Positions 2,962 through 46,813 of a DNA stretch of 64,000 bases are shown piece after piece (position 1 is the stretch's first letter; the number at the start of each line of letters is the position of its first letter). Made by a program: the position numbers and the translations under genes. This DNA comes from Lysobacterales bacterium (lineage in GTDB: Bacteria; Pseudomonadota; Gammaproteobacteria; Xanthomonadales; SZUA-5): the NCBI GenBank assembly GCA_022844165.1, contig JALHMH010000002.1, positions 32,001 through 96,000 of the forward strand. The letters are read 5' to 3'. The notes below the pieces were generated by a model. The model was not told the DNA's origin. It was given only the letters and a program-made list of their open reading frames with translations, and searched no databases.

Positions 2962-2962
2962 C

Positions 2963-3334: not shown

Positions 3335-3337
3335 TGA

Positions 3338-4672: not shown

Positions 4673-4675
4673 GGT

Positions 4676-6163: not shown

Positions 6164-6384
6164 CACAGCCCCTTGCTGGTCGTCACGCGGATCTGCCGCG
6201 GCGCGCCCGGCCACAGCCCGCTGTCCCGCGCCTGCTCAAACAATCCGCGCTTGACCTCGCGGATCGCCGCCTTGAGCTCCTCGACCGAGCGGTACTCAAC
6301 CATCTTGTCCTCGAAACGCACGCGACTCTCGCCGCGCGCGAGGGCCTGCTCAAGCGCAGCGAGGTGGGCTTCGGTGTAGGCCAT
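6163..6384 (-). CDS. gpW-like head completion protein
   Basis: 73 aa, LEQALARGESRVRFEDKMVEYRSVEEL directly upstream of portal. Confidence 0.85.
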   Translation of the reverse strand: MAYTEAHLAALEQALARGESRVRFEDKMVEYRSVEELKAAIREVKRGLFEQARDSGLWPGAPRQIRVTTSKGL

Positions 6385-12311: not shown

Positions 12312-12535
12312 TGAATACGCCCGCCACCGAACGGGAGCAGGCGCTGCGTTGGCTGATCGCCAACCGGCGTCCGGACGTCTCCATCGAACAGGCCGTGCGC
12401 TTGATGTGCACGGTGCTGCCCCGCGATCTCACCACGATGCAACTGCTGCGGCGCATCGCGGAGGAGGAAGACGCCAAAGCGCCTTCGCAGCGATTCAGCA
12501 GGCGCATGCATCCTGGTCTGCCGCCTCGCGGATAG
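12311..12535 (+). CDS. Small hypothetical protein
   Basis: 74 aa, translationally coupled (TGATG); converges on MTase. Confidence 0.55.
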   Translation: MNTPATEREQALRWLIANRRPDVSIEQAVRLMCTVLPRDLTTMQLLRRIAEEEDAKAPSQRFSRRMHPGLPPRG

Positions 12536-13736
12536 CCTCCTTGCCGGTGAAGTCTTCCCAACGCTGCACGATCACGTCGGCGTATTTCGGATCCAACTCC
12601 ATCACACGCGCCACGCGCCCGGACTTCTCCGCGGCGATCAGCGTGGTGCCGGAGCCGCCGAACGGATCGAGCACCACGTCGCCCGGGCGCGAGCTGTTGC
12701 GCAATGCGCGCTCGACCAGCTCGACCGGCTTCATGGTCGGATGCAGATCGTTCTTCTGCGGCTTCTTGATCTGCCAGACATCACTCTGGTCACGGTCGCC
12801 GCACCAATGGCGCTGCGCGCCCTCGGGCCACCCGTACAGGATCGGCTCGTACTGGCGCTGGTAGTCGGCGCGGCCCAGCGTAAAAGTGTGCTTGGCCCAG
12901 ATGATGAAGGTCGACCACTTGCCGCCTGCGGCGCGGAATGCGGCCTGCAGTACGTCGAGTTCGCTTGAGGACATAGCCACGTAGATGCCGCCGCGACAGT
13001 GGGCCAGGATCGGCGTCAGCGCCGCCAGCAGGAAATCGTAGAAGCCGTCACCGAGATTGTCGTTGAGGATCGCGCGGTCCTTCCCGCGCAGCTTGTCCTT
13101 CGCACTGTTGGCGTAGTTCACGTTGTAGGGCGGGTCGGTGAACACCATGTCTACCGCCTCGCCATCAAGCAGCGTGTCGTAGCTCGCGGCCACCGTCGCA
13201 TCGCCACAGAGCAGACGGTGCGGACCCAGTCGCCAGACGTCGCCGGGGCGCGATACCGGCGTCTCGCCGACCTCGGGCACCGCATCCTCATCGGTCTGGC
13301 CCTCGTTGACCGGCTCGTCGCCCGCCATCAACTCGGCCAGCGCATCGGCGTCGAAGCCGGTCAGGTCAAGATCGAAGCCTTCGTCCTGCAGGTCGGCCAA
13401 CTCCACGCGGAGCATGGCTTCGTCCCACTCGGCGTTCTCGGCGATGCGGTTGTCGGCGATGACCAGGGCGCGACGTTGGGTCGCCGTGAGGTGGTCGAGC
13501 ACGACCACCGGCACTGATGCCAGGCCGAGCTTCTGCGCGGCGGCCAGTCGTCCATGGCCGGCGACAATGACCCCATCGCTGCCGGCAAGAATTGGGTTTG
13601 TGAAGCCAAATTCCGCAATGCTCGCGGCGATCTGCGCGACCTGCGCGTCCGAATGGGTGCGCGCGTTGCGGGCATAGGGGATCAGTTTGTCGGTGGGCCA
13701 GGGCGCGATCTTGTCGGCCAGCCACGACACGCTCAC
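12495..13736 (-). CDS. ParB-N-fused N6A/N4C DNA methyltransferase
   Basis: N-terminal ParB (AGHGRL), TDPPYN catalytic motif, HPTMKP, DPFGGSGTT SAM motif. Confidence 0.93.
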   Translation of the reverse strand: MSVSWLADKIAPWPTDKLIPYARNARTHSDAQVAQIAASIAEFGFTNPILAGSDGVIVAGHGRLAAAQKLGLASVPVVVLDHLTATQRRALVIADNRIAENAEWDEAMLRVELADLQDEGFDLDLTGFDADALAELMAGDEPVNEGQTDEDAVPEVGETPVSRPGDVWRLGPHRLLCGDATVAASYDTLLDGEAVDMVFTDPPYNVNYANSAKDKLRGKDRAILNDNLGDGFYDFLLAALTPILAHCRGGIYVAMSSSELDVLQAAFRAAGGKWSTFIIWAKHTFTLGRADYQRQYEPILYGWPEGAQRHWCGDRDQSDVWQIKKPQKNDLHPTMKPVELVERALRNSSRPGDVVLDPFGGSGTTLIAAEKSGRVARVMELDPKYADVIVQRWEDFTGKEAIREAADQDACAC

Positions 13737-15145
13737 GGTGCCTCCGGCGCGGCGCGCGCGGCGCGCGCAGCGGCGACGCCCGCAAAGGGTTGTCCGGTGG
13801 CCTGAAGGTGCACCGGCTCGTTTGGAAAGTGCTGCTGAAACCGGCGAATGGCCACGTCGACATACTCGGGCGCGATCTCCACGGCGCGCGCCAGGCGTCC
13901 GGTGCGCTGCGCGGCGAGGATCGTCGTGCCGGAGCCGCAGAACGGTTCGAACACGATCTCACCCTCAGCCGTGTAGGCCTCGATGACGAACTGGGGCAGG
14001 GCCACCGGGAACACCGCGGGATGGTCGATGCCTTCGCCGATCTTGCCCTTATGGCGCATGACCCGGATCACCGAGTCGGGAATGCGATGGTCCTGCGTCG
14101 GTTGGCCGGCATGGGTCCAACCACCGACATCGCCGTCCTTGCCGCGCAGGGCGGTCGACGAGCCATCGGCGCGCAGGTGCGTGTCTTGTCCTGCGAACTT
14201 GCAGGGCACGGTCTTGTTCGGTTTGCGGGTGTCGCGATTGAAATGGAAGACGAACTCGAAGCTCGGCGCTAGGCGACCGGCCCAGTCGCCCGGCATACCC
14301 GGACCCTGATCCCAGACGTACCACGCGAAGCGACGCCAGCCCTGTGTGCGCATCCAGCCGAGCCACGCATCCCAGTACGGGATGAACTCGTTGTCTCGAT
14401 GGATCAGGCCGAGGTTCACCAGGACCTGGCCATCGTCGGCCATCGGCAGAGGTACGAACACGCCGCGCATCAGTGCATCCCAATCGGCAATGCCGCCGGA
14501 GGTGTAGTCGCGCTGGTTGCCATAGGGCGGCGAGGTGAAGCACAACTGCGCGCGGTCATCCTGCATCAGCAAGTCGATCACGCTGCGGTCCGCGGCATCG
14601 CCGCAGATCAGGCGGTGCGCGCCGAGCAGCCAGACGTCGCCCGGGCGCGATACCGCGACGGTCGGTGCATCGGGCACCTCGTCGGCGGCATCGTCATCCT
14701 GCGGGGCTTCGTCGCTCTCCTCCGGATCGCCGGCATCGGTGTCGTTGAGCAGGGAATGCAGTTCGGCATCGTCGAAGCCCGTCAACGCCAAATCGAATCC
14801 GGCGTCGGTCAGCTCGGCCAGTTCTACCGTCAACAGTTCCTCGTCCCAACCAGCGTCCAGCGCCAGACGATTGTCGGCAATGACATAGGCGCGCTTCTGC
14901 GCCGGCGACAGGTGCGCTAGCTCGATCACTGGCACGTCGGCCAAGCCCAGCTTGCGCGCGGCCGCCAAACGTCCGTGACCCGCGATGACACCCTGGACCG
15001 CATCCACCAGGATCGGCGTCGTCCAGCCGAACTCGGCGATGCTCGCGGCGATCTTGGCGATCTGCGCATCGCTATGCGTGCGCGGATTGCGGGCGTAGGG
15101 AATCAGCGTCTCGACCTGGCGGTACTCGACGTGGAGCGGGTTCAC
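13733..15145 (-). CDS. ParB-N-fused DNA methyltransferase (SPPY, likely N4C)
   Basis: GTG start 15145 (NPLHVEYRQVETL); AGHGRL, TSPPY, HPAVFP, EPFCGSGTT. Confidence 0.92.
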   Translation of the reverse strand: MNPLHVEYRQVETLIPYARNPRTHSDAQIAKIAASIAEFGWTTPILVDAVQGVIAGHGRLAAARKLGLADVPVIELAHLSPAQKRAYVIADNRLALDAGWDEELLTVELAELTDAGFDLALTGFDDAELHSLLNDTDAGDPEESDEAPQDDDAADEVPDAPTVAVSRPGDVWLLGAHRLICGDAADRSVIDLLMQDDRAQLCFTSPPYGNQRDYTSGGIADWDALMRGVFVPLPMADDGQVLVNLGLIHRDNEFIPYWDAWLGWMRTQGWRRFAWYVWDQGPGMPGDWAGRLAPSFEFVFHFNRDTRKPNKTVPCKFAGQDTHLRADGSSTALRGKDGDVGGWTHAGQPTQDHRIPDSVIRVMRHKGKIGEGIDHPAVFPVALPQFVIEAYTAEGEIVFEPFCGSGTTILAAQRTGRLARAVEIAPEYVDVAIRRFQQHFPNEPVHLQATGQPFAGVAAARAARAAPEAP

Positions 15146-15161
15146 GCGGATGCGGGTCCTG

Positions 15162-15197
15162 AAAACGAAAAACCCGCCGACGAAAGCCGTGGCGGGT
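15162..15197 (-). terminator. Intrinsic terminator upstream of methyltransferase genes
   Basis: Minus strand ACCCGCC-ACGGCTTTCGTC-GGCGGGT followed by TTTTCGTTTT. Confidence 0.65.
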
Positions 15198-15218
15198 GGA
15201 GTGGAATCGATGGTGGGG

Positions 15219-15326
15219 TGCGAACCTGCGAACCGCGCGAACCGTGCGAACCTCAGTTCGCAACCAGACGCTAGGGAAGCGTCGCGCTCGTCCCCCCCCG
15301 TATGGAACATCCCACAGGAAGGACCC
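15219..15326 (-). other. cos packaging site (cosQ-cosN-cosB-like)
   Basis: Minus strand GGGTCCT (lambda cosQ), then TACG-GGGGGGGACGAG-CGCG matching the lambda TACG-12mer-CGCG frame, then one inverted plus four direct GCGAAC(C) repeats. Confidence 0.75.
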
Positions 15327-15615
15327 CTTTTTCTCCGGCAGCGTGGCGTCAAAGCCACTGTGGCTTCATCGCCACTCCGGTCGTCTCGCCAGAGCCTCGT
15401 CCGAGGGGTTCAGAGCCAGCATGGATCGAAATCTACCATCGCCATCGGCTTTTGTTGCACGCCGAAAAACGGGCCGACTTGGCACTTGTCCGCAGTCGTC
15501 CGCAGCGGTTCGAAGGCATCGGAAACCGCATCCGATCATCCCCAGCAACCCGCAATCGTCCGCTCGAACCCGATCGACTTGGTGTTCGTACTCACCTGTC
15601 GTACGTTCAACCCCA

Positions 15616-15709
15616 GAGTGGCAGATGAGGCGGTTTATGTCGTTAACGCCTCGCGTGTGCGCGTACACGGTATGGAGGGTAACGACATAACCTGCCTCAT
15701 CTGCCACTC
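15616..15709. repeat. Long imperfect inverted repeat (hairpin)
   Basis: GAGTGGCAGATGAGGC..TTATGTCGTTA pairs with TAACGACATAA..GCCTCATCTGCCACTC (16-bp and 11-bp perfect blocks). Confidence 0.85.
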
Positions 15710-16051
15710 GGGTGGGTCCGGTGACCCTGTTCAGGGCGTTTCCGTCGCTTCGCCTTCTCCCGTGCCAGGTTATTGGGCTGGGGGTCGTGGGGGGCACGTT
15801 CGTCAGATCGGGCCAGGACTCCGCGTACTGCTCCGACTCTTGGCAACTGAACGACCCTCACGTTCGATATTCAAGCCAGGTCCACTAGACTGCCTGCCAC
15901 GTGCCGCAAAGATTGCGAAACACAGCGAATCGCAGTTTCAAGGAATGTACGGCAAGGCCGATCTGTCTCAGCACGAGTGAACCATGGACGAAGTCCATAC
16001 GCTGTTCGGGAACGATTCGGATTGAGGCGGGCAGGCACTGGGAGCGGTTGG

Positions 16052-17968
16052 ATGGGGCGAGCATATCGTGATGAATTGACTGAATTGGCGGCGACCCAAG
16101 CGGGGGTGCCAGCGGAAGTGCCGGCACGACTCGCGGCGCTGGCGTCCCAGGCAAGCGATTTCGGACTGGTGGTGGTCGCCTCCGGCGGCGCCAAGGTCGT
16201 TGCCGAGTGGGCCAGTCGGTTGCAGCGCATGACTTTCGGGTGTGCAGCAGTTGCGATGACTCCCCTGGAATACGCCGCCCTTCCAGTGCCGGTGCGCGCG
16301 ACGACATGGCTGATTTCCGCTGGCGGGCGGCATGCAGACATTTTGCAGGCCGCTCGCTCGGCCGCCTCACGCGGCGACGCCTGTGTCGTCGGACTGATTG
16401 GCCAGCCGGAGTCGCCGCTGCAGGCGCTGCTCAAGTCCGAGTTACGAAGCGACGTCGTCGATTTCGGATTGCCGCCCGGGCAGGATGGCTTCTTGGCCAC
16501 CAACAGTGTCTGGGCAATGGCATGTGCGCTCGCGAGAGCCTATTCCCGATGGCTGCCAGTGGCTGGTGCTTTGGACAACGTCCAGTGCGAGCGCCTGTTG
16601 GCTTGGGGTGCGGAAGCGGCGCGGGCCGTCACGACCGTCGAGCTAGTCGGTCGCGAAGTAGTGGTGCTACACGACGCATGGACGAGCTTGGGTGCACAGG
16701 ACCTCGAGGCCCGCTTGACGGAGACGTCTCTGGCGAACCTGTGGATCTCGGATTTCCGCAATTTCGGCCATGGCCGGCACTTCTGGTTTGCCGATCGCAC
16801 CGACCGGACGTTGCTCGTGTCGCTAGGCTCACCCGCTTCGGCAAGCGTCTCGGCGCCCACACTGGACGTGCTTCCCGAAACTCTGTCTACGCTACCTTTA
16901 TGTATGCCCGACGATGGCATTGCCGGCGCGTTGGCCAGTCTTGCGTGGTCGATGCACATCACCGCCCGATGGGCGTCGGAAATCGGGCGTGACCCTGGCA
17001 GGCCCGGTGTTCCCCGCTTTGGCGAACGGCTCTATGAAGGCGGCTTTCCTTACCCGGACACAGTCAAAGTGGACGTTGATCAATACGCGCTCCTGCGCAA
17101 GTCCCCGCAAGCGTCGGTAACTGATGTTGCCGGAAACTGGCGCAAGGCGCTGGGGGACGCGCGTTCGCTCATGCGCGACACGCCGGTTTCCGCCGTGGTC
17201 ATGGACTACGACGGAACGATGGTGGACAGTCCCAAACGCTATCAACCTTTGGACGAATGCCTTGCCGTCGAGTTGCGCCGACTGCTCGACCTCGGCGTGA
17301 TTATTGGCGTGGCGACCGGACGCGGGGATTCGATCCAGAAGGAACTGCGTTCCGCGCTACCCGACGCGCGCCACTGGGCGCGAGTGATCGTCGGCTACCA
17401 CAACGGCGCCAAAGTGATGCGCCTAAATGAACCTGCGCCCGAACTGGATGGGGCTCCCGCCCACCCGGATCTGCGCAGCGCGTGTGACGTGCTCACCCGA
17501 GAAGTGGCAATGCGGAGCTTGGGAACGTTGCGTTGCCGCGAGCACCAACTCACCGTAACGGCGGTTGCCGGCCAGTCGCTCGCGCGCGCATGGAGAGCGA
17601 CGCGCGAGTGCTTGGACCGTAATGGCTTGGACGCCGTGCGTGTCTGGCTGAGTTCCCATTCCGTCGACGTCCTGTCCCCTTGCTGTTCCAAGCTTCATGT
17701 GGTTTCACGCGTCGCACAGGTGGCCGCCTGTTCGCCGCTAGAGGTATTGCGCATCGGCGATCGAGGTGCGTGGCCCGGCAACGATTGGGAACTTCTCGCC
17801 GCGCCACTGGGCGTGTCCGTCGATGAGTGCTCCAGCGACCCGACCGCGAGTTGGAGCCTTTTGCCGCCGACCCTGAAGGGAATGCGGGCCACGACGCACT
17901 TGCTGCGGTGCCTGCAGGTCGACGACCGGGGCCAGGTGCGATTCACTGAGGAGGTCAGCAGCGCATGA
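16052..17968 (+). CDS. SIS-SIS sugar-phosphate domain / HAD-IIB phosphatase fusion
   Basis: SIS-like ISAGGRHADIL..GQPESPL and NFGHGRH; HAD motifs DYDGT, ATGR, K, IGDRG..GND; start re-called at MGRAY. Confidence 0.8.
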   Translation: MGRAYRDELTELAATQAGVPAEVPARLAALASQASDFGLVVVASGGAKVVAEWASRLQRMTFGCAAVAMTPLEYAALPVPVRATTWLISAGGRHADILQAARSAASRGDACVVGLIGQPESPLQALLKSELRSDVVDFGLPPGQDGFLATNSVWAMACALARAYSRWLPVAGALDNVQCERLLAWGAEAARAVTTVELVGREVVVLHDAWTSLGAQDLEARLTETSLANLWISDFRNFGHGRHFWFADRTDRTLLVSLGSPASASVSAPTLDVLPETLSTLPLCMPDDGIAGALASLAWSMHITARWASEIGRDPGRPGVPRFGERLYEGGFPYPDTVKVDVDQYALLRKSPQASVTDVAGNWRKALGDARSLMRDTPVSAVVMDYDGTMVDSPKRYQPLDECLAVELRRLLDLGVIIGVATGRGDSIQKELRSALPDARHWARVIVGYHNGAKVMRLNEPAPELDGAPAHPDLRSACDVLTREVAMRSLGTLRCREHQLTVTAVAGQSLARAWRATRECLDRNGLDAVRVWLSSHSVDVLSPCCSKLHVVSRVAQVAACSPLEVLRIGDRGAWPGNDWELLAAPLGVSVDECSSDPTASWSLLPPTLKGMRATTHLLRCLQVDDRGQVRFTEEVSSA

Positions 17969-19074
17969 AGACCAATACGGCGCTGCGCCTGCTCGCTGGC
18001 GTGATGGACTGGACGGACGAAGAGGCACGGGAAGAGTTTCGGTGGATGGACCTAATGGCTCGCCTGAAATACGACGGCTACCGTGAGTTTTTGGCGGGAA
18101 TGCGATTCTTGGAGAGTTTGGTGGCGTGGCTGCAGCAGTTCTCGCAGTCTGACCGCGCGGCGGCGTACGCCTTTGTGCGAAAGCGACTCGTGTTCGTGAG
18201 CCCTGCGGAGCGCCAGCGGCTAGTCGAACTGCTGTACTCAACGGTCGTCTGGCCGGTACTGGTGAAGTCGGCCATGCAGTCGACCTCAGCCAAGTCCTGG
18301 GAAGTGCTCGTCAATGATGCCGCCCGGCAGCACATGCAGCGCGACTTGCGCTCGACCTTGTTTCTTGCGCTGAGCGACGGCGCACGACTGGACGCATTTC
18401 GCCATGCGAATGCCGGTCGGATTTCCAACGAGCAGGTCGTGGTGACAGTTGAGCCCTCCGACGACAAATGCAACGATCTGCTCGAGGAGTTGCGAAAGGA
18501 CGTGAGCGACCCGGTCGCGGTGTTTCGTCGGATCGTGTTAGTGGATGATTTCACCGCCTCGGGCACGTCGTTGGTGCGCAGTGAATCCGGCAAGTGGAAG
18601 GGCAAGTTGCCGAAATTTTTGCGCGCCATCAACCGCGTCAAGTTGGCGAGTGGACCTTTCGAACTGCTGGTTCACCACCTCATCGGAACGCCGAAGGCGC
18701 GAGATCACCTTGCCGCGGCGATCGACGGCTGCCGCGCGTCCGAGCCGAACTTATGGGCCAAGGTTGAAAACGCCGTTGTCCCTTCGTTCGGCCTGTTGTA
18801 CCCGGAAACCCTGCCACTCGACGCGACCACCGATTCGGACTTTGTTGCGCTCACCCAAGCCTATTACGACGCGGGTATCGAGACTAGCCATACGCTCAAA
18901 GGTGGCGTGAAGCACCTCGGGCTGGGGTATGCCGGCTGCGCGTTGCCCCTGGTGCTGGACCACAATACCCCCAATAACAGCGTCGCCCTACTTTGGGCGG
19001 AGACTGAAGTTGGCAAGTACGTCGGCCCGCGCCAAGTTCGTCCGCTCTTCCGTCGCCGACAGCGGCACTCCTAG
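17965..19074 (+). CDS. Phosphoribosyltransferase-like protein
   Basis: PRPP-binding loop IVLVDDFTASGTS; C-terminal LGY..CALPLVLDHNTPNNS; ATGA coupling. Confidence 0.75.
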   Translation: MKTNTALRLLAGVMDWTDEEAREEFRWMDLMARLKYDGYREFLAGMRFLESLVAWLQQFSQSDRAAAYAFVRKRLVFVSPAERQRLVELLYSTVVWPVLVKSAMQSTSAKSWEVLVNDAARQHMQRDLRSTLFLALSDGARLDAFRHANAGRISNEQVVVTVEPSDDKCNDLLEELRKDVSDPVAVFRRIVLVDDFTASGTSLVRSESGKWKGKLPKFLRAINRVKLASGPFELLVHHLIGTPKARDHLAAAIDGCRASEPNLWAKVENAVVPSFGLLYPETLPLDATTDSDFVALTQAYYDAGIETSHTLKGGVKHLGLGYAGCALPLVLDHNTPNNSVALLWAETEVGKYVGPRQVRPLFRRRQRHS

Positions 19075-19081
19075 GAACAAG

Positions 19082-21019
19082 ATGGCCAGCCCGTTCGACA
19101 AACGCGCAGTAGAGAAGGTCCGCTACGACCACGCCTTGCTACCCTACGTGGCCCCGGCGCCATTTGACATGCACCTGCGTCCGCATGCTGAGAGCGACGC
19201 GTTGTTTGATCGCCTGGTGATCGTAAGTGGCACGCCAGGGAGCGGTAAGACCACGTTGGCACATCTGTTCCGGCTGCCGACGCTTCGAACGCTTCAGGAT
19301 ATGGCTGAGACGTCGCCGCAGCTGGGCGATCTCCGTGACGCGCTGGCAAATTGCAAGGCATACGAAGGCAAGGTCCCGCGCGTTGCCGGGTCTCGCCTGT
19401 CGATGGAGGCAGTGTATCGCGACTGCTGGGAATGTCCGTACGATCCACCGATTCGTCACCGCCTGTTGCGATCGTTGATCAACGCTCGCGCGATGCTCAT
19501 TTGGATGCAGGGTTTCACCGACGCCAAGATTCCGCTGGAATCGGTCCATCTAGTGGGCCGCCGTGGCACGCCCGGCGAACTCGATAGCATCGGGGGTGAA
19601 ACGGCACGCGAGGCCAGGGATAGGGCCATCGCGGTCGAGCGCGCCGTCATCCGGGTGTGTGGCGCCCTGCTGCCTCCATCGATGGACCAGTTTCCGCCCG
19701 AGCTCAACGATGCATATGCCCCGATCGACCTGCTGGACCGCTTTACGGTGCCGCTCGAAGATCGGGACTGCGAGATCCTGCCGCTGCTGGTGCTCGATGA
19801 CTTACAGCATCTGCACGTGGAGCAGCAGAAGTATTTGATGCGCTGGCTAGCGGGGCGCGAGGTGCGCATTGCCCGCTGGATGCTTACGCGATTCGACTCC
19901 TTCGGTCCGGAGCAGATTTTGTACGGCAAGCCCATGGCACAGGGGCTAGCGGATGCGACAGAACCCGGCGTGCAGTTGGGGCGCGATGTCCTCGAAATCA
20001 GGCTCCAGAGCGAACGCGGCAAGTCGCGCACAGACTTTCGAAGGGTCGCACAGCAGTTGTGCAAGCGTTACCTGGCGCAAATCCCCGTCATGCAGACTCG
20101 TGGTGCGACGGATATTCGGCAAATGCTCGAGGAGCGTCTTGAAAACATCACCAAGGCACAGCTGAAGGCCGCCGACGCTGCGATGGAGCAGGTGATCAAG
20201 ACCGCCCACTTGCCGGCAGTCCGGGTCAGGGACATCAGACAACACGTCAGCATTTACCTGGAGGACCGGGCCGTGCGGGGCGTTGAGGCCGAGGCGGTGG
20301 GGCGAGCGATGACGGCCATCCTGGTTAGTCGGCAAGGTAAGAAGGTGCGCCAAAGTTCCATTTTCGATGGTGAGGTCGACGCGGAGATCGAGGACCACAT
20401 CGTGCGCCCAACGTCCAGTGTCGAGCACGGAGCCCGCGTTCACCTGTGGCATAAAGCCGAGATCCCCTACTTGTACGGCTTCGAAAACCTCGCCGACCTG
20501 GCCAACGAGAATACCGAGCGTTTTTTGGATTTTGCCGGACAACTGGTCAACCTGCTCCTCACGCGGGTGATCCGATCAGCCGAAGCCCGGCTGGCTCCAA
20601 TGCAGCAGTTCAACGCCTTGCGCACGCATTCGCAGGCGATGATCGCTGGCTGGAATTTTCCTGAGTCCAGCCTGGTCCGCCAACTGGCAAGCGGAATCGC
20701 CGAGGAGTGCGTGGAAAAGTCGCTCGAGCCCAACGCTAGCTTGGGCGGAGGCGCTAGCGCCTTCGGGATCCCAATGACAGAGTTCATCCGCATTGCGCAA
20801 GACCAGCCGGACCTGGCGCGCATATTGCAGTTCGGTGTCGCGTACAACGTGTTCGCGCTGACGCCGGACCAACGGGCGAAGAACAAGGACTGGTGTCTGA
20901 TCGAACTGTCGGGTCCGGTCCTTCTTTCGCACGGGCTGACCCTCCAGCGAGGAGGCTTTCTCGAGCGCCGCGTGGCGGACATGGAGCGAATCGTGAAGCG
21001 CGAGGAGGGCCGGGCATGA
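19082..21019 (+). CDS. ORC/CDC6-like P-loop ATPase
   Basis: Walker A GTPGSGKT, Walker B LLVLDD, long helical C-terminus; start re-called at MASPF. Confidence 0.75.
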   Translation: MASPFDKRAVEKVRYDHALLPYVAPAPFDMHLRPHAESDALFDRLVIVSGTPGSGKTTLAHLFRLPTLRTLQDMAETSPQLGDLRDALANCKAYEGKVPRVAGSRLSMEAVYRDCWECPYDPPIRHRLLRSLINARAMLIWMQGFTDAKIPLESVHLVGRRGTPGELDSIGGETAREARDRAIAVERAVIRVCGALLPPSMDQFPPELNDAYAPIDLLDRFTVPLEDRDCEILPLLVLDDLQHLHVEQQKYLMRWLAGREVRIARWMLTRFDSFGPEQILYGKPMAQGLADATEPGVQLGRDVLEIRLQSERGKSRTDFRRVAQQLCKRYLAQIPVMQTRGATDIRQMLEERLENITKAQLKAADAAMEQVIKTAHLPAVRVRDIRQHVSIYLEDRAVRGVEAEAVGRAMTAILVSRQGKKVRQSSIFDGEVDAEIEDHIVRPTSSVEHGARVHLWHKAEIPYLYGFENLADLANENTERFLDFAGQLVNLLLTRVIRSAEARLAPMQQFNALRTHSQAMIAGWNFPESSLVRQLASGIAEECVEKSLEPNASLGGGASAFGIPMTEFIRIAQDQPDLARILQFGVAYNVFALTPDQRAKNKDWCLIELSGPVLLSHGLTLQRGGFLERRVADMERIVKREEGRA

Positions 21020-22089
21020 GTCCACGCTGGGATCCGTGCATCTCGCACCGAGACGATGCAGCCCGGCAGTTCATCGCTGACTACTTCAGTCAGATCGATC
21101 GCGACGTGCTGCTTGTGTGCGGTGCCGGCTTCGATCCGCGGGCCACCACGAACGCGACACTCTTGCAAATGGCGGCCCCAGGGCGCCTGCGGGCGCACCT
21201 CATCCGAGAACACCGCCCGCGGCCGGATGTGCCGTTGTTGCGCAACGCCGATACCAATCAGGCCGCGCTCCAAGCGCTGATGCCTCGCAGCCAGGTCCAT
21301 CGGGTCGACATCTTCTCTGAAGACGAGAAGACGGTAGTGGCGGGAAAGCGCGTCGTTGACATGTTTCACCGGCTGCCTCTGGCCGGCGCAACCGATATCG
21401 TGGTCGATGTGAGCGCACTTTCGACGGGTGTCAGTTTCCCGCTGATCCGGTACCTGGTGGGCCGGGCCGATACGACGGCGGGGTTTCCCAATGTGCATGT
21501 CTTGGCGCTCACCAGTCCGACGACTGACGATGCGGTACGCACCGAGCTCATGGACCAGCATCAGATGGTTCCGGGCTTCGGTGAAGAGCTGATGACCACC
21601 GCGGGAGCGAATAGGCCCAAATTGTGGCTGCCGCAATTGGGCAAACGAGCGACTTCGGCATTGGACGTCATTCAAAATCGCATGCGCTTCGACGAGATTT
21701 GCCCGATCTTGCCGTTCCCAGCGCGCAGTCCCCGAGCCGTGGAAGAGTTGGTCGAAGCCTATCGCGTCCAAATCTCCGAGACCTGGTTGGTCGACGATCG
21801 CGACCTTCTATATGCGGCGGAGGATGATCCGCTTGACCTGTACCGCACAATTCTGCGGATTGACACGCTGCGCGGTGCGGCGTTCCGGATCGAAGGCGGC
21901 TCGATGACAGTCCTGTCGCCGCTGGGGACCAAGGCGATGGCCTTGGGTGCGCTGCTGGCGGCGCTGGAACGCGACTTACCTATCGTTTATGTCGAGGCTC
22001 AGCGGTATAAGATGGCGCATCTGCCCGGGGTCCAGGCGTACGGCCTGATTCACCTCTGGCTCACCGGTCAGGCGTACCCTGCCCCATAG
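21016..22089 (+). CDS. Hypothetical protein, possibly tandem Rossmann/CARF-like
   Basis: 357 aa from MSPRW (ATGA overlap); motifs GAGFDPR, IVVDVS, SPLGTKAMALG. Confidence 0.7.
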   Translation: MSPRWDPCISHRDDAARQFIADYFSQIDRDVLLVCGAGFDPRATTNATLLQMAAPGRLRAHLIREHRPRPDVPLLRNADTNQAALQALMPRSQVHRVDIFSEDEKTVVAGKRVVDMFHRLPLAGATDIVVDVSALSTGVSFPLIRYLVGRADTTAGFPNVHVLALTSPTTDDAVRTELMDQHQMVPGFGEELMTTAGANRPKLWLPQLGKRATSALDVIQNRMRFDEICPILPFPARSPRAVEELVEAYRVQISETWLVDDRDLLYAAEDDPLDLYRTILRIDTLRGAAFRIEGGSMTVLSPLGTKAMALGALLAALERDLPIVYVEAQRYKMAHLPGVQAYGLIHLWLTGQAYPAP

Positions 22090-22110
22090 CCTTCGCAACG
22101 GACTTGCCGC

Positions 22111-23106
22111 ATGCCACGCCTCGTCGGAACGGGCCTCCTTGCGCTTGACCTGATCGTGCAACACGATGCCGACGGCCAGCGACTTTCGGCCAGCGGCGGC
22201 GGGACCTGCGGCAACGTGTTGGCCATCCTGGCGCGGTTGGGCTGGCAAGCAAGTTGGCTAGGTGCTATGGAGCCATCGGCGTCCGGTCGCATCGTGCTCG
22301 ACGAGATGCATCGTGGCGGCGTTCGTACGCACATCAGCCGAGAAGTCGCGCCCGCTCCGATATTTGCGCACCACATCCACACGGATGCCAACGGGCACGC
22401 AAGGCACTGGTTTTCCGACGCATGTCCAGTCTGCTCCCGACGCCTGCCGCGCTACGCGCGCCCGTCCGATGCGTGGCTGCGCCGCCAGTCAAGTCACGTG
22501 CGTGACGCCGATGTGTTCTTCGCGGATCGGCTTTCGGCCGGCGCGCTGGATCTCGCCCAACTGGCACACGAGCGCGGCGCACTGGTGGTTTACGAGCCAT
22601 CGAGCGCGTCCGATGCGCCTTGGATGGCGGACATGATGGCGATCGCGGACGTGGTGAAATTTTCGAGCGATCGCGCGAGTGCGTTGCGAGGCAAGGCACC
22701 GCCCAACCAGCGGGTGCTGTGGGTTGAAACCCGCGGAAATGAAGGCTTGCGTTGGTCGCTTGGGCGTGCGGGCGCGCTCAACGCCGTCACGGCTGCCGTC
22801 CACAATTCTGCGGCGATTGACGCGTGTGGCGCGGGCGATTGGTTTACCAGTGCGCTGCTCTTCGGTCTGGCACAGGCGCAGAAAAAACCTGCAGACCTGA
22901 CTTTTGATCAATTGGCGGCCTTGATGCAGCGTGCCGCCGGTGTGGCCGCATGGAGCTGTGGCTTCCTGGGCGCGCGAGGCGGCCTGTACGACGCGCCCGT
23001 GCGCGCTCTCTTTGACCAGTTGCACGCCACTCCATCTCACGCCCCGGCGCCTTTGCCAAGGCCGATTCCCCGGGTTGATGCCGCAGACCATTGCGTTTAC
23101 GCCTGA
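22111..23106 (+). CDS. PfkB family carbohydrate/nucleoside kinase
   Basis: GGGTCGNV..LARLG and DACGAGDWF signatures; CPVC insert. Confidence 0.9.
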   Translation: MPRLVGTGLLALDLIVQHDADGQRLSASGGGTCGNVLAILARLGWQASWLGAMEPSASGRIVLDEMHRGGVRTHISREVAPAPIFAHHIHTDANGHARHWFSDACPVCSRRLPRYARPSDAWLRRQSSHVRDADVFFADRLSAGALDLAQLAHERGALVVYEPSSASDAPWMADMMAIADVVKFSSDRASALRGKAPPNQRVLWVETRGNEGLRWSLGRAGALNAVTAAVHNSAAIDACGAGDWFTSALLFGLAQAQKKPADLTFDQLAALMQRAAGVAAWSCGFLGARGGLYDAPVRALFDQLHATPSHAPAPLPRPIPRVDAADHCVYA

Positions 23107-23110
23107 GGCG

Positions 23111-23458
23111 CTAGCCCGCCGCCTCCAAGTCCAAAAGATCGGCCACGGCCCGCAGGACCGCGGCCGTGGCGCTGGCTGAGCCGGCACCGCGCAGAGCTCG
23201 CAAGTGATGCTCAAGCGCGTTCGAGCCAGCCTGAGCGGTCGGACATTGCGAATTAACGAAAATATCGAGTCTTTTCAGCGTTGGGGTCCATGCTGGCGGA
23301 TCGGCGTTGAGTGCGCGCAGGACTGCGCTAGCGCTGACGTCGATTTTGCCCGCCAGCGCGGTAGGAGACAGCCCAGTCTTCTGCAGAAAATCCCTCACCG
23401 CTGCTACTGTTGCGATCGCGTTTTCATCGCTTGTCGAAGGAGTCCGGCCGCGCGGCAT
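23111..23458 (-). CDS. XRE-like HTH regulator
   Basis: LSPTALAGKIDVSASAVLRAL HTH; divergent from NADAR. Confidence 0.65.
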   Translation of the reverse strand: MPRGRTPSTSDENAIATVAAVRDFLQKTGLSPTALAGKIDVSASAVLRALNADPPAWTPTLKRLDIFVNSQCPTAQAGSNALEHHLRALRGAGSASATAAVLRAVADLLDLEAAG

Positions 23459-23472
23459 GCGAGATGTTCCAC

Positions 23473-23504
23473 TTGACTATTTCAACTATTAATGCAATTA
23501 ATAG
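23473..23504. promoter_or_regulatory. Divergent AT-rich promoter with palindromic operator
   Basis: TTGACT at 23473; perfect palindrome CTATTAAT-GCA-ATTAATAG 23486-23504. Confidence 0.65.
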
Positions 23505-23521
23505 CACATTTATAGCAATAA

Positions 23522-24031
23522 ATGCAAACCATGCCGAGCGAGATCCAGTTCTACCGGGCCAATGAGCGCCCCTACGGCGCTTTCAGCAACCTTTACCGCC
23601 GCGATTTCGAGTTCGAAGACGAGGTATTTCCGACGGCCGAGCACGCTTACCAAGCTGGGAAGGCGCGAAAGCCTGAGGTCCGTGCTTGGCTCATGGCAGC
23701 GCCTTCCCCGGCGCTGCTGGCCATGGCGGCCCATGGCCTCTACTACTGGGACATCTCTCCGGGCTGGTCTACGAAGAAGTTCGATCGGATGAAACGAATC
23801 CTGCAAGCGAAGTTCTCGCAGCACACGGATCTGAGGCACCTCCTCTTGGGCACTGGCGACGTGAGGCTAGTTGAGTCTGCGACGGTGGATTCCGCGGTCA
23901 ACCGGCTTTGGGGCGAAGTCAATGGTGTGGGGAAGAACAAGCTTGGCCAGTTGCTGATGGAAGTTCGCGCCGAGCTTCGCGAAACGCACGGCAGCACGCA
24001 CACGCGCGAGCTACAGCTGGCGAGCGCCTGA
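23522..24031 (+). CDS. NADAR (YbiA-like) family protein
   Basis: FSNLY, TAEHAYQAGK, AKFSQH, LLGTGD.RLVES, WG..GKNKLGQLLMEVR. Confidence 0.9.
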   Translation: MQTMPSEIQFYRANERPYGAFSNLYRRDFEFEDEVFPTAEHAYQAGKARKPEVRAWLMAAPSPALLAMAAHGLYYWDISPGWSTKKFDRMKRILQAKFSQHTDLRHLLLGTGDVRLVESATVDSAVNRLWGEVNGVGKNKLGQLLMEVRAELRETHGSTHTRELQLASA

Positions 24032-24100
24032 CACGGCTCCAGCCAGTTTGGGGGCCATGGGCATCAATAAAGGGGCGCCGTGTGGCTGGCCCAAAGTGGG

Positions 24101-24499
24101 TCACGTGTGCTCGGCTATCACCGAATTCAACGCCCCATTCCACCGCCTCCAAGCCGTCGTCCGATCACACCCCATCCAGACGCAGATGTCCTTCCACGGC
24201 TCATGGCTGGCGCGCTTCCATAGTAGATGCCGCTGATCTTCTTCGAGCGCGCTGACCCACTCGAAGCAGGCGAGCATGCGGTCGATGGCGGCGCCGCTGG
24301 GTGGGAAGAACACGGGCTTGTCGTCGGCTGCGAACTTTTCGCTGGCGCTGCGCGGGATCTGGGGCCAGATCGAGGCGTAGCCGCGGGGGCCGGCGGGTGG
24401 GAGTTTGCGGGCGGTGCGTGAGGCTTCTTCGAGCATGGCGGCGAGTTCCTTGGTGGTTGCCGGCATGCGGATCTTGGTGACGGGGCGGGTGAGGCTCAT
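24101..24499 (-). CDS. DUF6362-like protein, putative late-gene regulator
   Basis: EEASRTARKLP..GYASIWP; C-terminal HTH WKDICVWMGCDRTTAWRRW; last early gene (lambda Q position). Confidence 0.7.
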   Translation of the reverse strand: MSLTRPVTKIRMPATTKELAAMLEEASRTARKLPPAGPRGYASIWPQIPRSASEKFAADDKPVFFPPSGAAIDRMLACFEWVSALEEDQRHLLWKRASHEPWKDICVWMGCDRTTAWRRWNGALNSVIAEHT

Positions 24500-24978
24500 G
24501 CAGCCTCCTTGGCGTTGGCTGCCTTGGCGCGCGCCGAGACGCACAGCAGCAGCGCGATCGCGTCGGCCTCGTTGTCGTCCTTTGGTGCAAACCCGCGCCG
24601 CTCGACCGCAGCGATTACCGCGGCTTTGTTGGCGTTGCCGCTGCCCGTCACCGAGCGCTTGATCGTGCCGACTGGCACGCCGGCATAGGGGATCTGGTGT
24701 TGCTCGCACCAGGCGCTCAGCTGACCCAGCAGTCCGCCATAGACGTGGGCTGCGTCGACGCCTTGATGCCGGCGCACTTCCTCGAAACGGACCTCGCCGA
24801 TCGCGGTCAGTTGGTGCATCTCATCGAGCCAGCGACGAAAGCGCAGGTAGCGCATGCCGCCGCCCTCAAATCGCTGCGGCCGAAAACTCTGCGTACCGCT
24901 GGTGACGGCGCCGCCGGGGTTGGCAATCGCCCAGCCGGTTTGGGTGCCTAGGTCGAGTGCCAGGATCGTGGGGTTCAT
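24496..24978 (-). CDS. RuvC-like Holliday junction resolvase
   Basis: ILALDLGTQTGWA, FEEV, DNEADA. Confidence 0.85.
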   Translation of the reverse strand: MNPTILALDLGTQTGWAIANPGGAVTSGTQSFRPQRFEGGGMRYLRFRRWLDEMHQLTAIGEVRFEEVRRHQGVDAAHVYGGLLGQLSAWCEQHQIPYAGVPVGTIKRSVTGSGNANKAAVIAAVERRGFAPKDDNEADAIALLLCVSARAKAANAKEAA

Positions 24979-24996: not shown

Positions 24997-27318
24997 TCAG
25001 TCGTCGCGGTAGGGCAGCGGGCCGACGGGTTTGGGGCGTAACGAGATGCCGACAAATCCGCGCGTGCCGCCGCTGAACTTGGCGCGCTCGAATCGGCGGT
25101 TGGTCAGGAGTTCGGAGAAGCGCTTGATCGAGCCGGCGAACTCGCCGGCCTTCTCGGCCCAAGTGCGCCAGTCCTCAAACAGATCCGCGGCGGTGGCGCG
25201 CGCGACGCGTTCGACGAAGCAGCGATCCTCGATCCAGCGACCCAGCGCGTCTTCGCTTTCGAAGTAGTCGTCGGTGGCCTCGACCACGCAGCGTGGCGGG
25301 CGCAGGCCCTTGCGTTGCCACGCCAGGCAACCCTCGACCATCCAGGCGAGCACTGCATCGCGCTCGCGCCAGATCTTGTCTTCGAGTTGTTTGTCGCGCC
25401 GGTCGGGCGGCACGGTGATGGTGAACGGGATCAGCTGCAGGCGGCGGCGCATGGCCTCGTCGAGGTTGCGGATCGAGGGCTTGTGATTGCCGGCGATCAG
25501 CAACTTGAACTGCGGGATGTACTCGAAGAAGTCCTGGCGCATGAACCGCGCCGAGACCTTGTCGCCGCCGGTCAGCGTCTTGATCTTGCTTTCGTTCCAG
25601 CGCCGACCCTGTTCGGTTTCGACCGAGGACACCAGGCGCGCGCCGCGCAGACCCGCAAGGTCGGTCGGGTGCCGATCCGATCGGGTCTCCATGAACATCT
25701 CCATTGGCGCGTGCGTGGCGTACTCCGCCAGCAAGGCGCTCAGCGTGTTGACGAACACGCTCTTGCCGTTGGCGCCCGTACCATAGAGGAAGAACAGCGC
25801 GTGTTCGCTGGTCTTGCCGGTCAGGCAGTAGCCGCAGATGCGCTGCAGGTAGTCGATCAACTCGCTGTCGCCACCGGTGCACTCGACCAGGAACTTGCGC
25901 CAGGTCGGACATGCGCCAGCGTCACCCAAGCGCGCGGCCGCCAGCTTGGTCATGCGGTCGGCGCGGTCATGAGGCCGCACGCTGCCGTTGCGTAGGTCGA
26001 CGACGCCACCCAACGTGTTCAGCAACCAGGGATCGGCGTCCCATTCGTCCGCATTGGCGGCGTGCAGGCGATCGCTGCGGGCCAAGCGTTCGACGCCGGC
26101 GACGGTACCGCTCGCTGCCAGCTTGGCCGCGAGTCGCGGCGAGTCCGCCTCCAGGGCGTGCTGGCGACAGACCGCGCGGATCAGGTCGGTGGCGCGCAGC
26201 GTGGCTTCGGGTACCCAGCGCATGCCGGTCCACACCAGCCACTGACCCCAGGCCGCCACATAGCGCCAGTCCGGCGCGTAGCGCGCGGTGAAGTGCAGCG
26301 CCATGCCGTCTTCGGTGCCCCAGACCGCGGCTGGTGTCTGTGCCGCGTTGTCCGATGCGCCGGGCAAGTCCGGCCCCTGAATCGCCATGCGCTCAGCGTC
26401 GCGAATGAACGCCGGCACATCGACTTGCTCGACGACCGCGTCGGCGCAGTCCCAACCCTCACTGCGGTCCTCCGGCGGCAGAAGAATCGCGCAACTGCGC
26501 GCGCCGACCGCGACGATGGCCTCGCTGGCGGCGATTGCGTAGTCCCAGCCCGGACTGTCCTTGTCGGGCCAGATCAGCACGTCCTTGCCGGCCAGCGGCG
26601 ACCAGTCCGTCTTGTCGACCGGGGCGCGGGCACCGTGCATAGCGGTGGTCGCGCAAAGTCCCAGATCGATCAGCGCCTGTGCGCATTTCTCGCCCTCGAC
26701 CAGGACGATGGTCTCGGCGCGCGCCAGCGCCGGCTGGTTGTACAGCGGCCGTGGATCCAACCCTTCGAACCGGCCCGTGCGCACGTTCCAAGGCCTGAAC
26801 TCCTTGCGACCGGGCTCGGGCTCATAGCGATAGACGCACGCCAGCAACGCGCCGTCGGCGGCCAGATAGTCCCACTTGGCGGTTGGCGGCCCGAGGTCCG
26901 GCGCGTCGACTGAGCGTGTGCGAGCACGTTGTGGCGCCGCTCGAACCGACACCGAATCGCTCAAGTCCGTAGGCGCTGTACCCAACCACTGCGCCGCGCG
27001 CTCCAGCACCTCCCGAAAATCACTCCTTGCCGACAGTCCCTGCGCCTGCGCAAACAACTCGATGTGATCGCCACCCTGCGAGGTGGCGAAGTCATACCAC
27101 TGCCCGCGCTTGGGTCCATCCAGCGACACCGACAGCGAGTCGCCCGGCTCGCCGCGCGCATTGCCGATCTGGAACTTGCCCGCGCGGAACACGCCCGCCG
27201 GCAGATAGGTGCGCAGCATCGATTCCAGTCGATCGAGCAGACCGTCGCGGATCGAGTCCGCGTCGATGCTGCGCCGCGTCGGCTCCGCCGCGTCATTGAA
27301 GTCCAGCACCTGGGTCAT
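24997..27318 (-). CDS. Primase-helicase, P4/D5 family
   Basis: Toprim VEGEK/WPDKD; SF3 helicase GTGANGKS, KTLTGGD. Confidence 0.92.
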   Translation of the reverse strand: MTQVLDFNDAAEPTRRSIDADSIRDGLLDRLESMLRTYLPAGVFRAGKFQIGNARGEPGDSLSVSLDGPKRGQWYDFATSQGGDHIELFAQAQGLSARSDFREVLERAAQWLGTAPTDLSDSVSVRAAPQRARTRSVDAPDLGPPTAKWDYLAADGALLACVYRYEPEPGRKEFRPWNVRTGRFEGLDPRPLYNQPALARAETIVLVEGEKCAQALIDLGLCATTAMHGARAPVDKTDWSPLAGKDVLIWPDKDSPGWDYAIAASEAIVAVGARSCAILLPPEDRSEGWDCADAVVEQVDVPAFIRDAERMAIQGPDLPGASDNAAQTPAAVWGTEDGMALHFTARYAPDWRYVAAWGQWLVWTGMRWVPEATLRATDLIRAVCRQHALEADSPRLAAKLAASGTVAGVERLARSDRLHAANADEWDADPWLLNTLGGVVDLRNGSVRPHDRADRMTKLAAARLGDAGACPTWRKFLVECTGGDSELIDYLQRICGYCLTGKTSEHALFFLYGTGANGKSVFVNTLSALLAEYATHAPMEMFMETRSDRHPTDLAGLRGARLVSSVETEQGRRWNESKIKTLTGGDKVSARFMRQDFFEYIPQFKLLIAGNHKPSIRNLDEAMRRRLQLIPFTITVPPDRRDKQLEDKIWRERDAVLAWMVEGCLAWQRKGLRPPRCVVEATDDYFESEDALGRWIEDRCFVERVARATAADLFEDWRTWAEKAGEFAGSIKRFSELLTNRRFERAKFSGGTRGFVGISLRPKPVGPLPYRDD

Positions 27319-46801: not shown

Positions 46802-46813
46802 GGCGCGCAACGG

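Follow-up and report, generated by a model that had tools for sequence, protein, structure and literature searches.

What is a compact set of enzyme genes, transcribed against the phage genes on either side of it, doing inside a prophage? The question is raised by seven genes at 16052-24031 in a 64,000-nt stretch of the genome of a Lysobacterales bacterium (assembly GCA_022844165.1, contig JALHMH010000002.1, positions 32,001 to 96,000), which we call the window. Five of these genes form what we call the cassette; genes for a small HTH protein and a NADAR protein follow it. An earlier note, made from the letters of the window alone, had read the locus as a candidate defence system. We found that the five genes recur as a unit across phyla and that one of them encodes a stand-alone tandem-CARF protein. 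Most likely, the prophage carries an 8-kb, horizontally mobile conflict cassette as a moron. New here is the proposed conflict system built around CARF, which combines non-canonical enzymes and lacks a cyclase; the parts themselves are known. The features of the module are as follows.

16052-17968, plus strand: SIS-HAD protein (ORF listing; ATG chosen from the homologue alignment)
17965-19074, plus strand: PRTase-CE protein, putative effector (PF24390)
19082-21019, plus strand: ORC/Cdc6-like AAA+ ATPase (PF24389)
21016-22089, plus strand: stand-alone tandem-CARF protein (PADLOC CARF6 and predicted fold)
22111-23106, plus strand: PfkB-family kinase, accessory (PF00294)
23111-23458, minus strand: small HTH protein, possible regulator (Pfam HTH_31, below the cut-off)
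23522-24031, plus strand: NADAR N-glycosidase, accessory (PF08719, TIGR02464)
16019-24043, no strand: limits of the mobile module, i.e. cassette, HTH and NADAR genes (blastn against loci L001 and L002)

A recurrent and mobile gene cassette

In the open reading frame (ORF) listing, the five co-oriented genes occupy 16052-23106 on the plus strand and precede the HTH (minus) and NADAR (plus) genes. The SIS-HAD and PRTase genes share a 4-nt start/stop overlap at 17965, as do the ATPase and CARF genes at 21016. Gaps of 7 nt (19075-19081) and 21 nt (22090-22110) separate the PRTase gene from the ATPase gene and the CARF gene from the PfkB gene. The SIS-HAD ORF is open from 15977; the homologue alignment starts at the ATG at 16052, and the start was therefore taken there. 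The earlier note had described five coupled, co-oriented genes with these overlaps and gaps, followed by a divergent HTH/NADAR pair, and the listing agrees. It had also placed the cassette opposite to the flanking phage genes, and the neighbours matched by PHROGs are indeed all on the minus strand.

One genome per species was scanned for relatives of the CARF protein. It yielded at least 216 relatives, of which the 80 best loci were retrieved and compared. By their record titles, these loci come from Alpha-, Beta- and Gammaproteobacteria, Planctomycetota, Acidobacteriota, Myxococcota, Nitrospirales, Binatia, Poribacteria and Entotheonella. Searches with the window's proteins (tblastn) recovered CARF in 80 loci, PfkB in 80, the ATPase in 79, the PRTase in 75 and SIS-HAD in 70, and all five genes are present in 69 of the 80. 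Among the other 11, six end at a contig end inside the cassette, and five (L019, L046, L049, L056 and L076) lack a gene or have a truncated one despite the DNA being present. These five are decayed copies: the PRTase runs into CARF in L049 (positions 762-2786), where the ATPase gene is gone, and upstream genes are missing or truncated in the other four.

The order SISHAD-PRT-ORC-CARF-PfkB is found in 57 of the 61 completely recovered loci, with PfkB-SISHAD-PRT-ORC-CARF in three and PRT-ORC-CARF-SISHAD-PfkB in one; the median gaps are -4, 9, 1 and -4 nt. The trio of PRTase, ATPase and CARF is contiguous in all three orders. CARF is encoded directly after the ATPase in every one of these loci (61 of 61), and the PRTase-ATPase and ATPase-CARF gaps are at most 25 nt in all 61. 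The recurrence of five genes in the same order and with such tight coupling (57 of 61) is far beyond chance.

The CARF gene is also present in 19 plasmid records, nine of which are typed as conjugative, and these matches add two Actinomycetota. Nine of the 19 plasmid loci were inspected. SIS-HAD, PRTase, ATPase and CARF occur in all nine, even at 26-30% CARF identity, PfkB occurs in seven, and a NADAR gene directly adjoins the cassette in four. Because all nine plasmid loci keep these four genes while PfkB and NADAR vary, comparison of the sequences indicates a core of four genes, to which PfkB or NADAR, or the two together, are added as accessories. Both are present in the window. The earlier note had tied its proposal to homologues occurring together, and they do, with all five genes in most of the 80 genome loci and the core in every plasmid locus inspected.

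Of the two closest loci, L001 aligns with 16028-23993 of the window (73.7%) and L002 with 16019-24043 (79.7%) in blastn comparisons. The flanks of the window do not align with either, apart from two short stray matches in L001. Given that the alignment stops at 16019 and 24043, the edges of the module are mapped, and it moves as one 8-kb piece that includes the HTH and NADAR genes. A repeat search found no direct repeat flanking the module edges. The region has 148 inverted pairs; the one of 21 nt near the two edges (16039-16059 and 24131-24151, 81% complementary) was rejected as probably due to chance. The 59 genomes of the same genus, family and order contain the CARF gene once, in the window's own genome (one of 44 among those that are at least 90% complete). 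The moron position in a prophage that the earlier note had described is borne out, for a self-contained mobile cassette with mapped edges, a patchy distribution and additional copies on plasmids.

Annotated plasmid neighbours of the cassette include a Shedu nuclease, a UvrD-like helicase, Tn7-like genes, a recombinase, SIR2, integrases, a caspase, DUF4145, DUF4231 (SLATT-like) and IS66. On one plasmid, the conjugation genes themselves flank the cassette. We also tallied the families in the flanks of the loci, covering 129 of 304 ORFs (16 of 39 dereplicated loci); the tally uses crude ORF calls and counts families, not proteins. No neighbour is conserved. The defence-type families in the tally are AbiEii-like AAA_21, RES, patatin, SLOG, DUF1156 methylase, AriA, AbiLi and HEC-01.

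Two RNA libraries from one sample (X16 and X18) contain short exact contigs on the cassette at a depth of ~2-4, and a third (X20) contains a 1531-nt contig with 60 differences and a depth of 15.1 on 22401-23931. These metatranscriptome contigs are a hint of cassette expression; they show neither strand nor level, uncovered stretches carry no meaning, and DNA carry-over is possible. In 14 public runs from 11 studies the module is present in near-identical form (81-98% of sampled words); five of these runs may represent the source sample itself. The runs are metagenomes of activated sludge, bioreactors, wastewater and drinking water, and one of them has no organism label.

The core proteins and their accessories

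The fourth gene, which the earlier note had listed as unknown, turned out to belong to a catalogued CARF family. The PADLOC model CARF6 (PDLC01916) matches its product at E 5.9e-94, with residues 7-356 on model positions 2-344 of 345, and a second PADLOC model (PDLC01910) matches at E 1.7e-89. Pfam has no match to the protein, and its sequence profile yielded 0 matches in the PDB. Numbered CARF families are reportedly defined in the CARF census of Makarova et al. 2020. At least 1166 relatives were found in 90% clusters, all unnamed. At 50% identity the family has 822 representatives, 394 of them at E ≤1e-30. The protein has no fused effector domain: among the best 150 of the 822, the full-length matches have ~340-400 aa, apart from one of 572 aa, and the shorter rows are fragments.

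An AlphaFold2 (AF2) model of the CARF protein (predicted local distance difference test, pLDDT, 77.9; predicted template modelling score, pTM, 0.83) was compared with 48,161 chains using VIA-align. The top match is Can1 (6sce_A; Z 13.3, root-mean-square deviation 3.4, 233 aligned, model residues 30-331). It is followed by Csm6 (Z 11.7), Can2 (10.0) and Card1 (9.9), and then by Csx1-Crn2, Cam1, Csa3, Cdn1, Sso2081 (Z 7.7) and Cap5-SAVED. Without exception, the 24 highest-ranked entries belong to CARF or SAVED proteins; 15 chains reach Z ≥8, and the 15 entries shown are all CARF-domain proteins. Foldseek against the PDB returned generic two-Rossmannoid matches only (C-terminal domains of cation-chloride transporters, methyltransferases; template modelling (TM) score ~0.25), and the CARF fold signal emerged with VIA-align alone.

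Can1 is a nuclease activated by cyclic tetra-adenylate (cA4) and has two CARF domains in one chain. Because Can1 is the top VIA-align match, the predicted structure points to a tandem-CARF pseudo-dimer without an effector domain. Conserved loops follow strands 1 and 4 of each half (GAGFDPR, D-x-S-A-L-S-x-G and S-P-L-G-S-K), and the conserved residues include those of the loops at the putative ligand pocket between the two CARF units. Sensors of the CARF and SAVED type are known to receive the cyclic oligonucleotides that Cas10 or CD-NTases produce. The host genome, which is 99.97% complete, gave no match to SMODS CD-NTase, Csm1 or Cmr2, and none of the cassette proteins is a Cas10 or CD-NTase.

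The third gene encodes an ORC/Cdc6-like AAA+ ATPase. Pfam PF24389 (ORC-CDC6-like) matches at E 3.8e-8 (33 bits, cut-off 27), and the same family is present in 74-98% of the members of its Atlas clusters. In homologue alignments, which here and below comprise 20 diverse homologues per enzyme, the Walker A motif GTPGSGKT and the Walker B DD are invariant. In the PDB, the profile finds only P-loop stretches. Foldseek ranks 1-5 for the AF2 model (pLDDT 86.2) are Cdc6/ORC chains at E 5.8e-4 to 2.6e-3, with whole-model TM scores of just 0.22-0.26. The best matches are Cdc6 (1fnn_A, E 5.8e-4) and ORC1 (7jgr_A); archaeal Cdc6 and eukaryotic ORC1/Cdc6 are thus nearest, with Apaf-1 and CED-4 next. The C-terminal half of the model, where ORC/Cdc6-like ATPases would have a winged-helix DNA-binding domain, is helical apart from a small sheet at 561-610. 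The model shows nothing like an effector domain (nuclease, pore or protease), and its matches are solely Cdc6/ORC/STAND-like.

A complex model of the ATPase (residues 8-643) with the CARF protein supports binding between the two. It scored 0.82, 0.82 and 0.81, a mark that 58 of 80 solved complexes reach, as do 2 of 110 mismatched pairs; the best of three controls scored 0.00. At least 92% of the contacts agree between runs, with a partner pLDDT of 88 or more. Given that neither protein has a solved relative by sequence, the model is unlikely to owe this score to memorised structures. The predicted contact lies on the AAA+ core, at ATPase residues 110-120, 137-141, 184-199 and 244-247, beside Walker B. 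On the ATPase side, the interface residues are more conserved than the protein mean (0.76 versus 0.63; 7 of 24 invariant; permutation p 0.005).

The PRTase is matched by Pfam PF24390 (PRTase-CE) over residues 54-364 (E 3.4e-16, 60.3 bits, cut-off 27), and in the PDB its profile gives only chance-level rows. PADLOC PRTase_III-A models match it at E 1.2e-10 over residues 317-366. Both the loop for phosphoribosyl pyrophosphate (PRPP), VDDF..GT (D194, D195, G200, T201), and HNTPNN (333-338) are invariant or nearly so in homologues. The C-terminal region has a G-x14-PNN-x-V stretch, the same one that the PRTase_III-A models match, and it fits the retron motif 'Gx14PNNxP'. According to the accessible parts of the Retron-Eco11 study (PMC12746101), this motif is specific to retron-associated PRTases, an active PRPP loop is required for defence, and activation lowers PRPP by ~50% and leads to abortive infection. 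PRTase-CE models mark type III-A retron effectors, as far as the available text of another paper describes them (PMC13712802). Because its relatives are effectors of type III-A retrons, the PRTase is by analogy most likely the effector of the cassette. We considered a type III-A retron and rejected it, since Pfam finds no reverse transcriptase (RT) family among the seven proteins that fill the module.

The SIS-HAD protein has a SIS-like domain (residues ~1-340) fused to a HAD-IIB phosphatase domain (~380-600). The motifs DYDGT (D385, D387), TGR (422-424), K547 and GD..ND (569-578) of the HAD domain are invariant across its 20 aligned sequences, and the domain scores 20.4 bits against Pfam Hydrolase_3, just under the cut-off of 20.9. 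The GSGG and SAGG..D loops of the SIS-like half are conserved. The profile of this half weakly matches the double-SIS proteins 8eol and 3hba in the PDB (E 1.3e-3), and the nearest Atlas clusters are annotated as 'SIS domain-containing' (scores 0.90-0.93), with feature hits to SIS clusters at 0.87-0.93 overall.

The PfkB kinase is an accessory part and, to judge from its sequence, belongs to the fructokinase-like branch. Pfam PF00294 matches at E 4e-13 (49.8 bits, cut-off 25.8), and its profile finds the sugar kinase PH1459, fructokinase and ketohexokinase in the PDB at E ~1e-14. The motifs GGTCGN (G30, G31) and GAGD (G240-x-G242-D243) are invariant. Catalytic motifs are intact in the HAD, PRTase, ATPase and PfkB proteins alike. 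The PfkB family has additional conserved residues (H99, C105 and C108) and, in most members, a C-terminal CPxC, which is reduced in the window's copy. These residues suggest a zinc-binding insert, and we know of no such insert in ordinary PfkB kinases.

The NADAR protein is matched by Pfam PF08719 (E 5e-26, 92.3 bits, cut-off 35.1) and by TIGR02464, a model of riboflavin-intermediate N-glycosidases (83.3 bits, cut-off 73.7). It scores 55.8 bits against the NCBIfam model of anti-phage NADARs, NF053876, far under the cut-off of 240. A NADAR gene adjoins the cassette in 4 of the 80 genome loci, in addition to the plasmid loci mentioned above. The protein is 67-75% identical in locus L078 and in the four plasmid loci (L083, L084, L089 and L090), in which the other parts are 22-43% identical. 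This pattern reflects either a much stronger constraint on cassette-linked NADARs or recent exchange. In the two plasmid loci without PfkB, NADAR is the first gene of the operon and overlaps the SIS-HAD start (translational coupling). YbiA-type NADARs act on N-(5-phosphoribosyl)amines, the kind of bond that a PRTase makes. NADARs are described as ribosyl N-glycosidases that stand in for Macro domains as erasers in DarT-like toxin-antitoxin pairs, and phage NADARs have been proposed to counter signals derived from ADP-ribose (accessible text of PMC9503650).

The small HTH protein matches Pfam HTH_31 at E 0.0063, below the cut-off, and is a possible regulator. It has tblastn matches in 4 of the 80 loci and is limited to close relatives and L078.

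The prophage around the module

The remaining features of the prophage are listed below.

1960-6214, minus strand: major head protein, protease and portal (PHROGs)
7379-9334, minus strand: large terminase (PHROGs)
12495-15358, minus strand: two ParB-N/DNA-methyltransferase fusions (PHROGs)
24101-24709: DUF6362 protein (Pfam)
24496-24978, minus strand: RuvC-like resolvase (PHROGs)
24997-27318, minus strand: primase (PHROGs)
28553-30232, minus strand: helicase (PHROGs)
33016-34746: large serine recombinase, likely the prophage integrase

The cassette lies inside the prophage, in reversed orientation, between the replication block and the methylase/packaging block. The gene at 24101-24709, which the earlier note had put at the Q position, matches DUF6362 only. 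The serine recombinase probably marks the prophage end. Past it are metal-resistance genes of host type (40737-51019 and 57683-60922), which comprise an outer-membrane factor, an HlyD-type adaptor, two AcrB-type pumps, a P-type ATPase with an HMA domain and a multicopper oxidase. The genes beyond ~40 kb look like host genes.

The two ParB-N/DNA-methyltransferase genes (12495-13736 and 13733-15358, both on the minus strand) are in tandem and overlap, and match phrog_498 at E 7.6e-166 and 1.1e-112. Such a pair is typical of phage genes for anti-restriction or self-methylation. Within the 690 nt that separate the methylase gene from the cassette, and outside the mobile module, lies a near-perfect 100-nt hairpin at 15616-15711. 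Its arms (15618-15645 and 15680-15707) have two mismatches, and it folds at -69.4 kcal/mol (z -7.3), a stability that none of 200 shuffles equals. Rfam finds no riboswitch in 15300-16100; its only matches are sub-threshold ones to miRNA models and are due to the long hairpin. A promoter scan of 15300-24200 was uninformative, with 0 sites versus 1.2 expected and 8 terminator-like sites versus 7.1 expected.

Possible functions and relation to known systems

We propose that the cassette is an abortive-infection-type conflict system, acting against phages or plasmids, in which a CARF-gated ATPase controls a PRPP-consuming PRTase, and we rate the chances that this is its function as about even. The tandem-CARF protein would sit on the AAA+ core of the ATPase, as in the complex model, and would act as a ligand-gated brake or switch, like the CARF domain that is present in cis in RtcR. 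The ORC-like ATPase would sense DNA or protein of the invader and would then license the PRTase. The SIS-HAD, PfkB and NADAR proteins, as ribosyl and sugar-phosphate enzymes, might make, recycle or clear the phosphoribosyl product. This product may be the CARF ligand, and its clearing could be an off-switch or self-protection. The PRTase itself would spend PRPP by phosphoribosylating a base or an amine, leading to a collapse of the nucleotide supply such as that reported in the available text on Retron-Eco11 (PMC12746101).

The defence reading of the earlier note is plausible and gains weight from the identity of the CARF protein, the mobility of the cassette, its linkage to NADAR and the predicted pairing of CARF with the ATPase. 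Its suggestion that the ATPase gates the response gains indirect support from the modelled complex (0.82 versus 0.00 for the control). The idea that PRTase and NADAR form a write/erase set also gains some support from sequence comparisons, because NADAR recurs with distant variants of the cassette. The note had not recognised the combination as a named system. No PADLOC or NCBIfam system corresponds to it, although its parts are catalogued (CARF6, PF24390 and PF24389); PF24389 and PF24390 are consecutive Pfam accessions. A description of the gene set was not found in the searchable full-text literature, and an earlier computational mention is possible. The accessible parts of PMC13092281, PMC13581612, PMC8195603 and 10.64898/2026.10.19.760177 contain nothing on it.

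Several observations weigh against a conflict system of this kind. No system model in PADLOC v2 or NCBIfam r20 matches the gene set: PADLOC yields single-part matches only (CARF6, PRTase_III-A and PDC-M42C), with none for SIS-HAD, the ATPase or PfkB, and NCBIfam has no match for the PRTase, the ATPase or the CARF protein. The likeness to retron PRTases in PADLOC is limited to residues 317-366. None of the 50,697 records of a phage collection holds the CARF gene, which makes the prophage an unusual home for the cassette; contrary to the slant of the earlier note, the cassette is not typically phage-borne. Housekeeping families, such as AcrB, D-Tyr-tRNA deacylase and ABC transporters, also occur in the flank tally, which was made without a background set and for which we claim no defence enrichment. 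The SIS assignment is the weakest of the part identities, with no Pfam SIS match at E 0.01. Finally, the complex score is the model's own confidence and no measurement, and the CARF side of the interface is not conserved above average (0.60 versus 0.63, p 0.70).

In a different arrangement of the same parts, the PRTase, PfkB and SIS-HAD would make a phosphoribosyl-derived messenger that CARF senses, and the ATPase would be the effector, which might for instance load onto DNA and thereby block replication. Infection may raise the signal, or a constant signal may be guarded, so that its loss to a phage enzyme is the trigger; a decoy-signal design exists in Panoptes, as far as the source text available describes it. 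The intact catalytic motifs in all four enzymes are compatible with such a pathway, and the predicted CARF-ATPase contact would suit direct control of the ATPase by a ligand. With no cyclase in the cassette or genome, the CARF ligand must come from elsewhere, and an isomerase, a kinase and a phosphatase together resemble the logic of sugar-1-phosphate or ADP-heptose synthesis. The combination of a PfkB kinase with a double-SIS enzyme likewise recalls FrlD/FrlB, as the isomerase-kinase-phosphatase set recalls the ADP-heptose route. However, the ATPase model has no effector-like domain, PfkB is dispensable in two of the nine plasmid loci, which would be odd for an obligatory biosynthetic step, and the PRTase-CE relatives in retrons are effectors, not signal makers, in the accessible text of PMC12746101. 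We consider this arrangement unlikely. It is doubtful, too, that the cassette is the first CARF pathway independent of Cas10 and CD-NTases, in which the PRTase (with the isomerase-phosphatase and the kinase) would make a non-cyclic phosphoribosyl messenger, NADAR would clear it, and CARF would read it and gate the ORC-like ATPase.

Readings without an immune role fare less well. The cassette could be a mobile biosynthetic or salvage unit for a specialised nucleoside or sugar-phosphate metabolite (e.g. a nucleoside antibiotic precursor or cofactor variant), with the CARF-ATPase pair as its regulator. Small-molecule enzymes make up four of the seven proteins, fructokinases and ketohexokinases are the nearest matches of PfkB, NADAR exceeds the cut-off of the riboflavin-intermediate model, and transport and sugar genes lie beside some loci. 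Yet the conserved unit has no transporter, export pump, tailoring enzyme or resistance gene, its flanks vary by locus, its distribution is extremely patchy, and the CARF and PRTase-CE families are otherwise known from immune systems, which makes such a role quite unlikely. Very unlikely, in our estimate, is a module that protects the prophage or plasmid rather than the cell, be it by addiction (PRTase as toxin, NADAR or HAD as antidote) or by counter-defence that mops up host immune nucleotides (with CARF acting as a sponge or ring nuclease and NADAR erasing the signal). The cassette is always on or beside mobile elements, in one plasmid even inside the block of conjugation genes, and stand-alone CARF proteins include ring nucleases, such as Sso2081 among the VIA-align matches; the activity against ADP-ribose-derived signals proposed for phage NADARs in the text available to us (PMC9503650) would also fit. 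Against this stand the lack of the CARF gene in all phage records searched, the absence of NADAR from 76 of the 80 genome loci, and the size of the device: seven genes over 8 kb, with an ATPase among them, are more than one would expect of a sponge or an addiction pair. An ordinary sugar-utilisation operon that lies in the prophage by chance was already disfavoured and is barely credible. The PfkB kinase and HAD sugar phosphatase annotations would suit it, but Pfam finds no transporter, glycosidase or catabolic regulator, the link to CARF, the ORC-like ATPase and PRTase-CE is obligatory across phyla, and 58 of the 59 related genomes do not have the cassette. The earlier note had likewise stated that there is no transporter or catabolic enzyme, and the Pfam results for the cassette proteins concur.

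The proposed CARF-gated conflict system shares features with several known systems. The fold of its CARF protein is common to the sensors of type III CRISPR and CBASS (Can1, Can2/Card1, Csm6 and Cap5), with Can1 the closest. Unlike these sensors, it has no fused effector and no Cas10 or CD-NTase in the cassette or host genome, and its constant neighbours are instead a PRTase, an ORC-like ATPase and sugar-phosphate enzymes. A second parallel is RtcR, whose CARF domain acts as a brake. As described in the accessible text of PMC4012209, RtcR consists of CARF, an NtrC-type AAA+ ATPase and an HTH domain. In both cases a CARF module would control an AAA+ ATPase, in the cassette through a predicted contact between CARF and the AAA+ core. 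The cassette differs in having two separate proteins and an ATPase of the ORC/Cdc6 clade, not of the NtrC type, and no sigma-54 activator or HTH output is seen.

The PRTase resembles those of Retron-Eco11 and other type III-A retrons in its Pfam family group, its PRPP loop and its Gx14PNN motif, as far as these are described in the available parts of PMC12746101. By contrast, its N-terminal region (1-90) is different, it has a basic C-terminal tail (RPLFRRRQRH), no RT is present among the module proteins, and its partner would be the ATPase-CARF pair. PRTases and HAD phosphoesterases are also found together in the Ter system, where they were proposed to make a threat signal derived from nucleosides or nucleotides, in connection with phage and plasmid resistance (accessible text of PMC7824862 and PMC5512222). 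The cassette lacks TerB, TerD, TerC and TelA, and its sensor would be CARF; the two are likened here by description, not by direct comparison of the PRTases. DarT-NADAR and DarTG systems, as the available text of PMC9503650 presents them, similarly pair an N-glycosidase with an enzyme that makes an N-ribosyl bond. However, the writer in the cassette would be a PRPP-dependent PRTase and not an NAD-dependent ADP-ribosyltransferase, and the NADAR gene is not an obligatory part (4 of 80 genome loci, 4 of 9 plasmid loci).

The cassette ties a well-conserved CARF family to other enzymes and to an ORC-like ATPase, here in a genome without a SMODS, Csm1 or Cmr2 match. Given its compactness (8 kb) and mapped edges, the module is directly clonable and testable. 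If it is immune, it would represent a new signal or depletion chemistry built on PRPP, would link retron-type PRTase effectors to a non-retron sensor, and would provide an example, open to testing, of an AAA+ switch that CARF controls in trans. Should the messenger reading be the true one, the cassette would bring to light an immune second messenger of a new class, together with a new mode of control of an origin-recognition-type ATPase.

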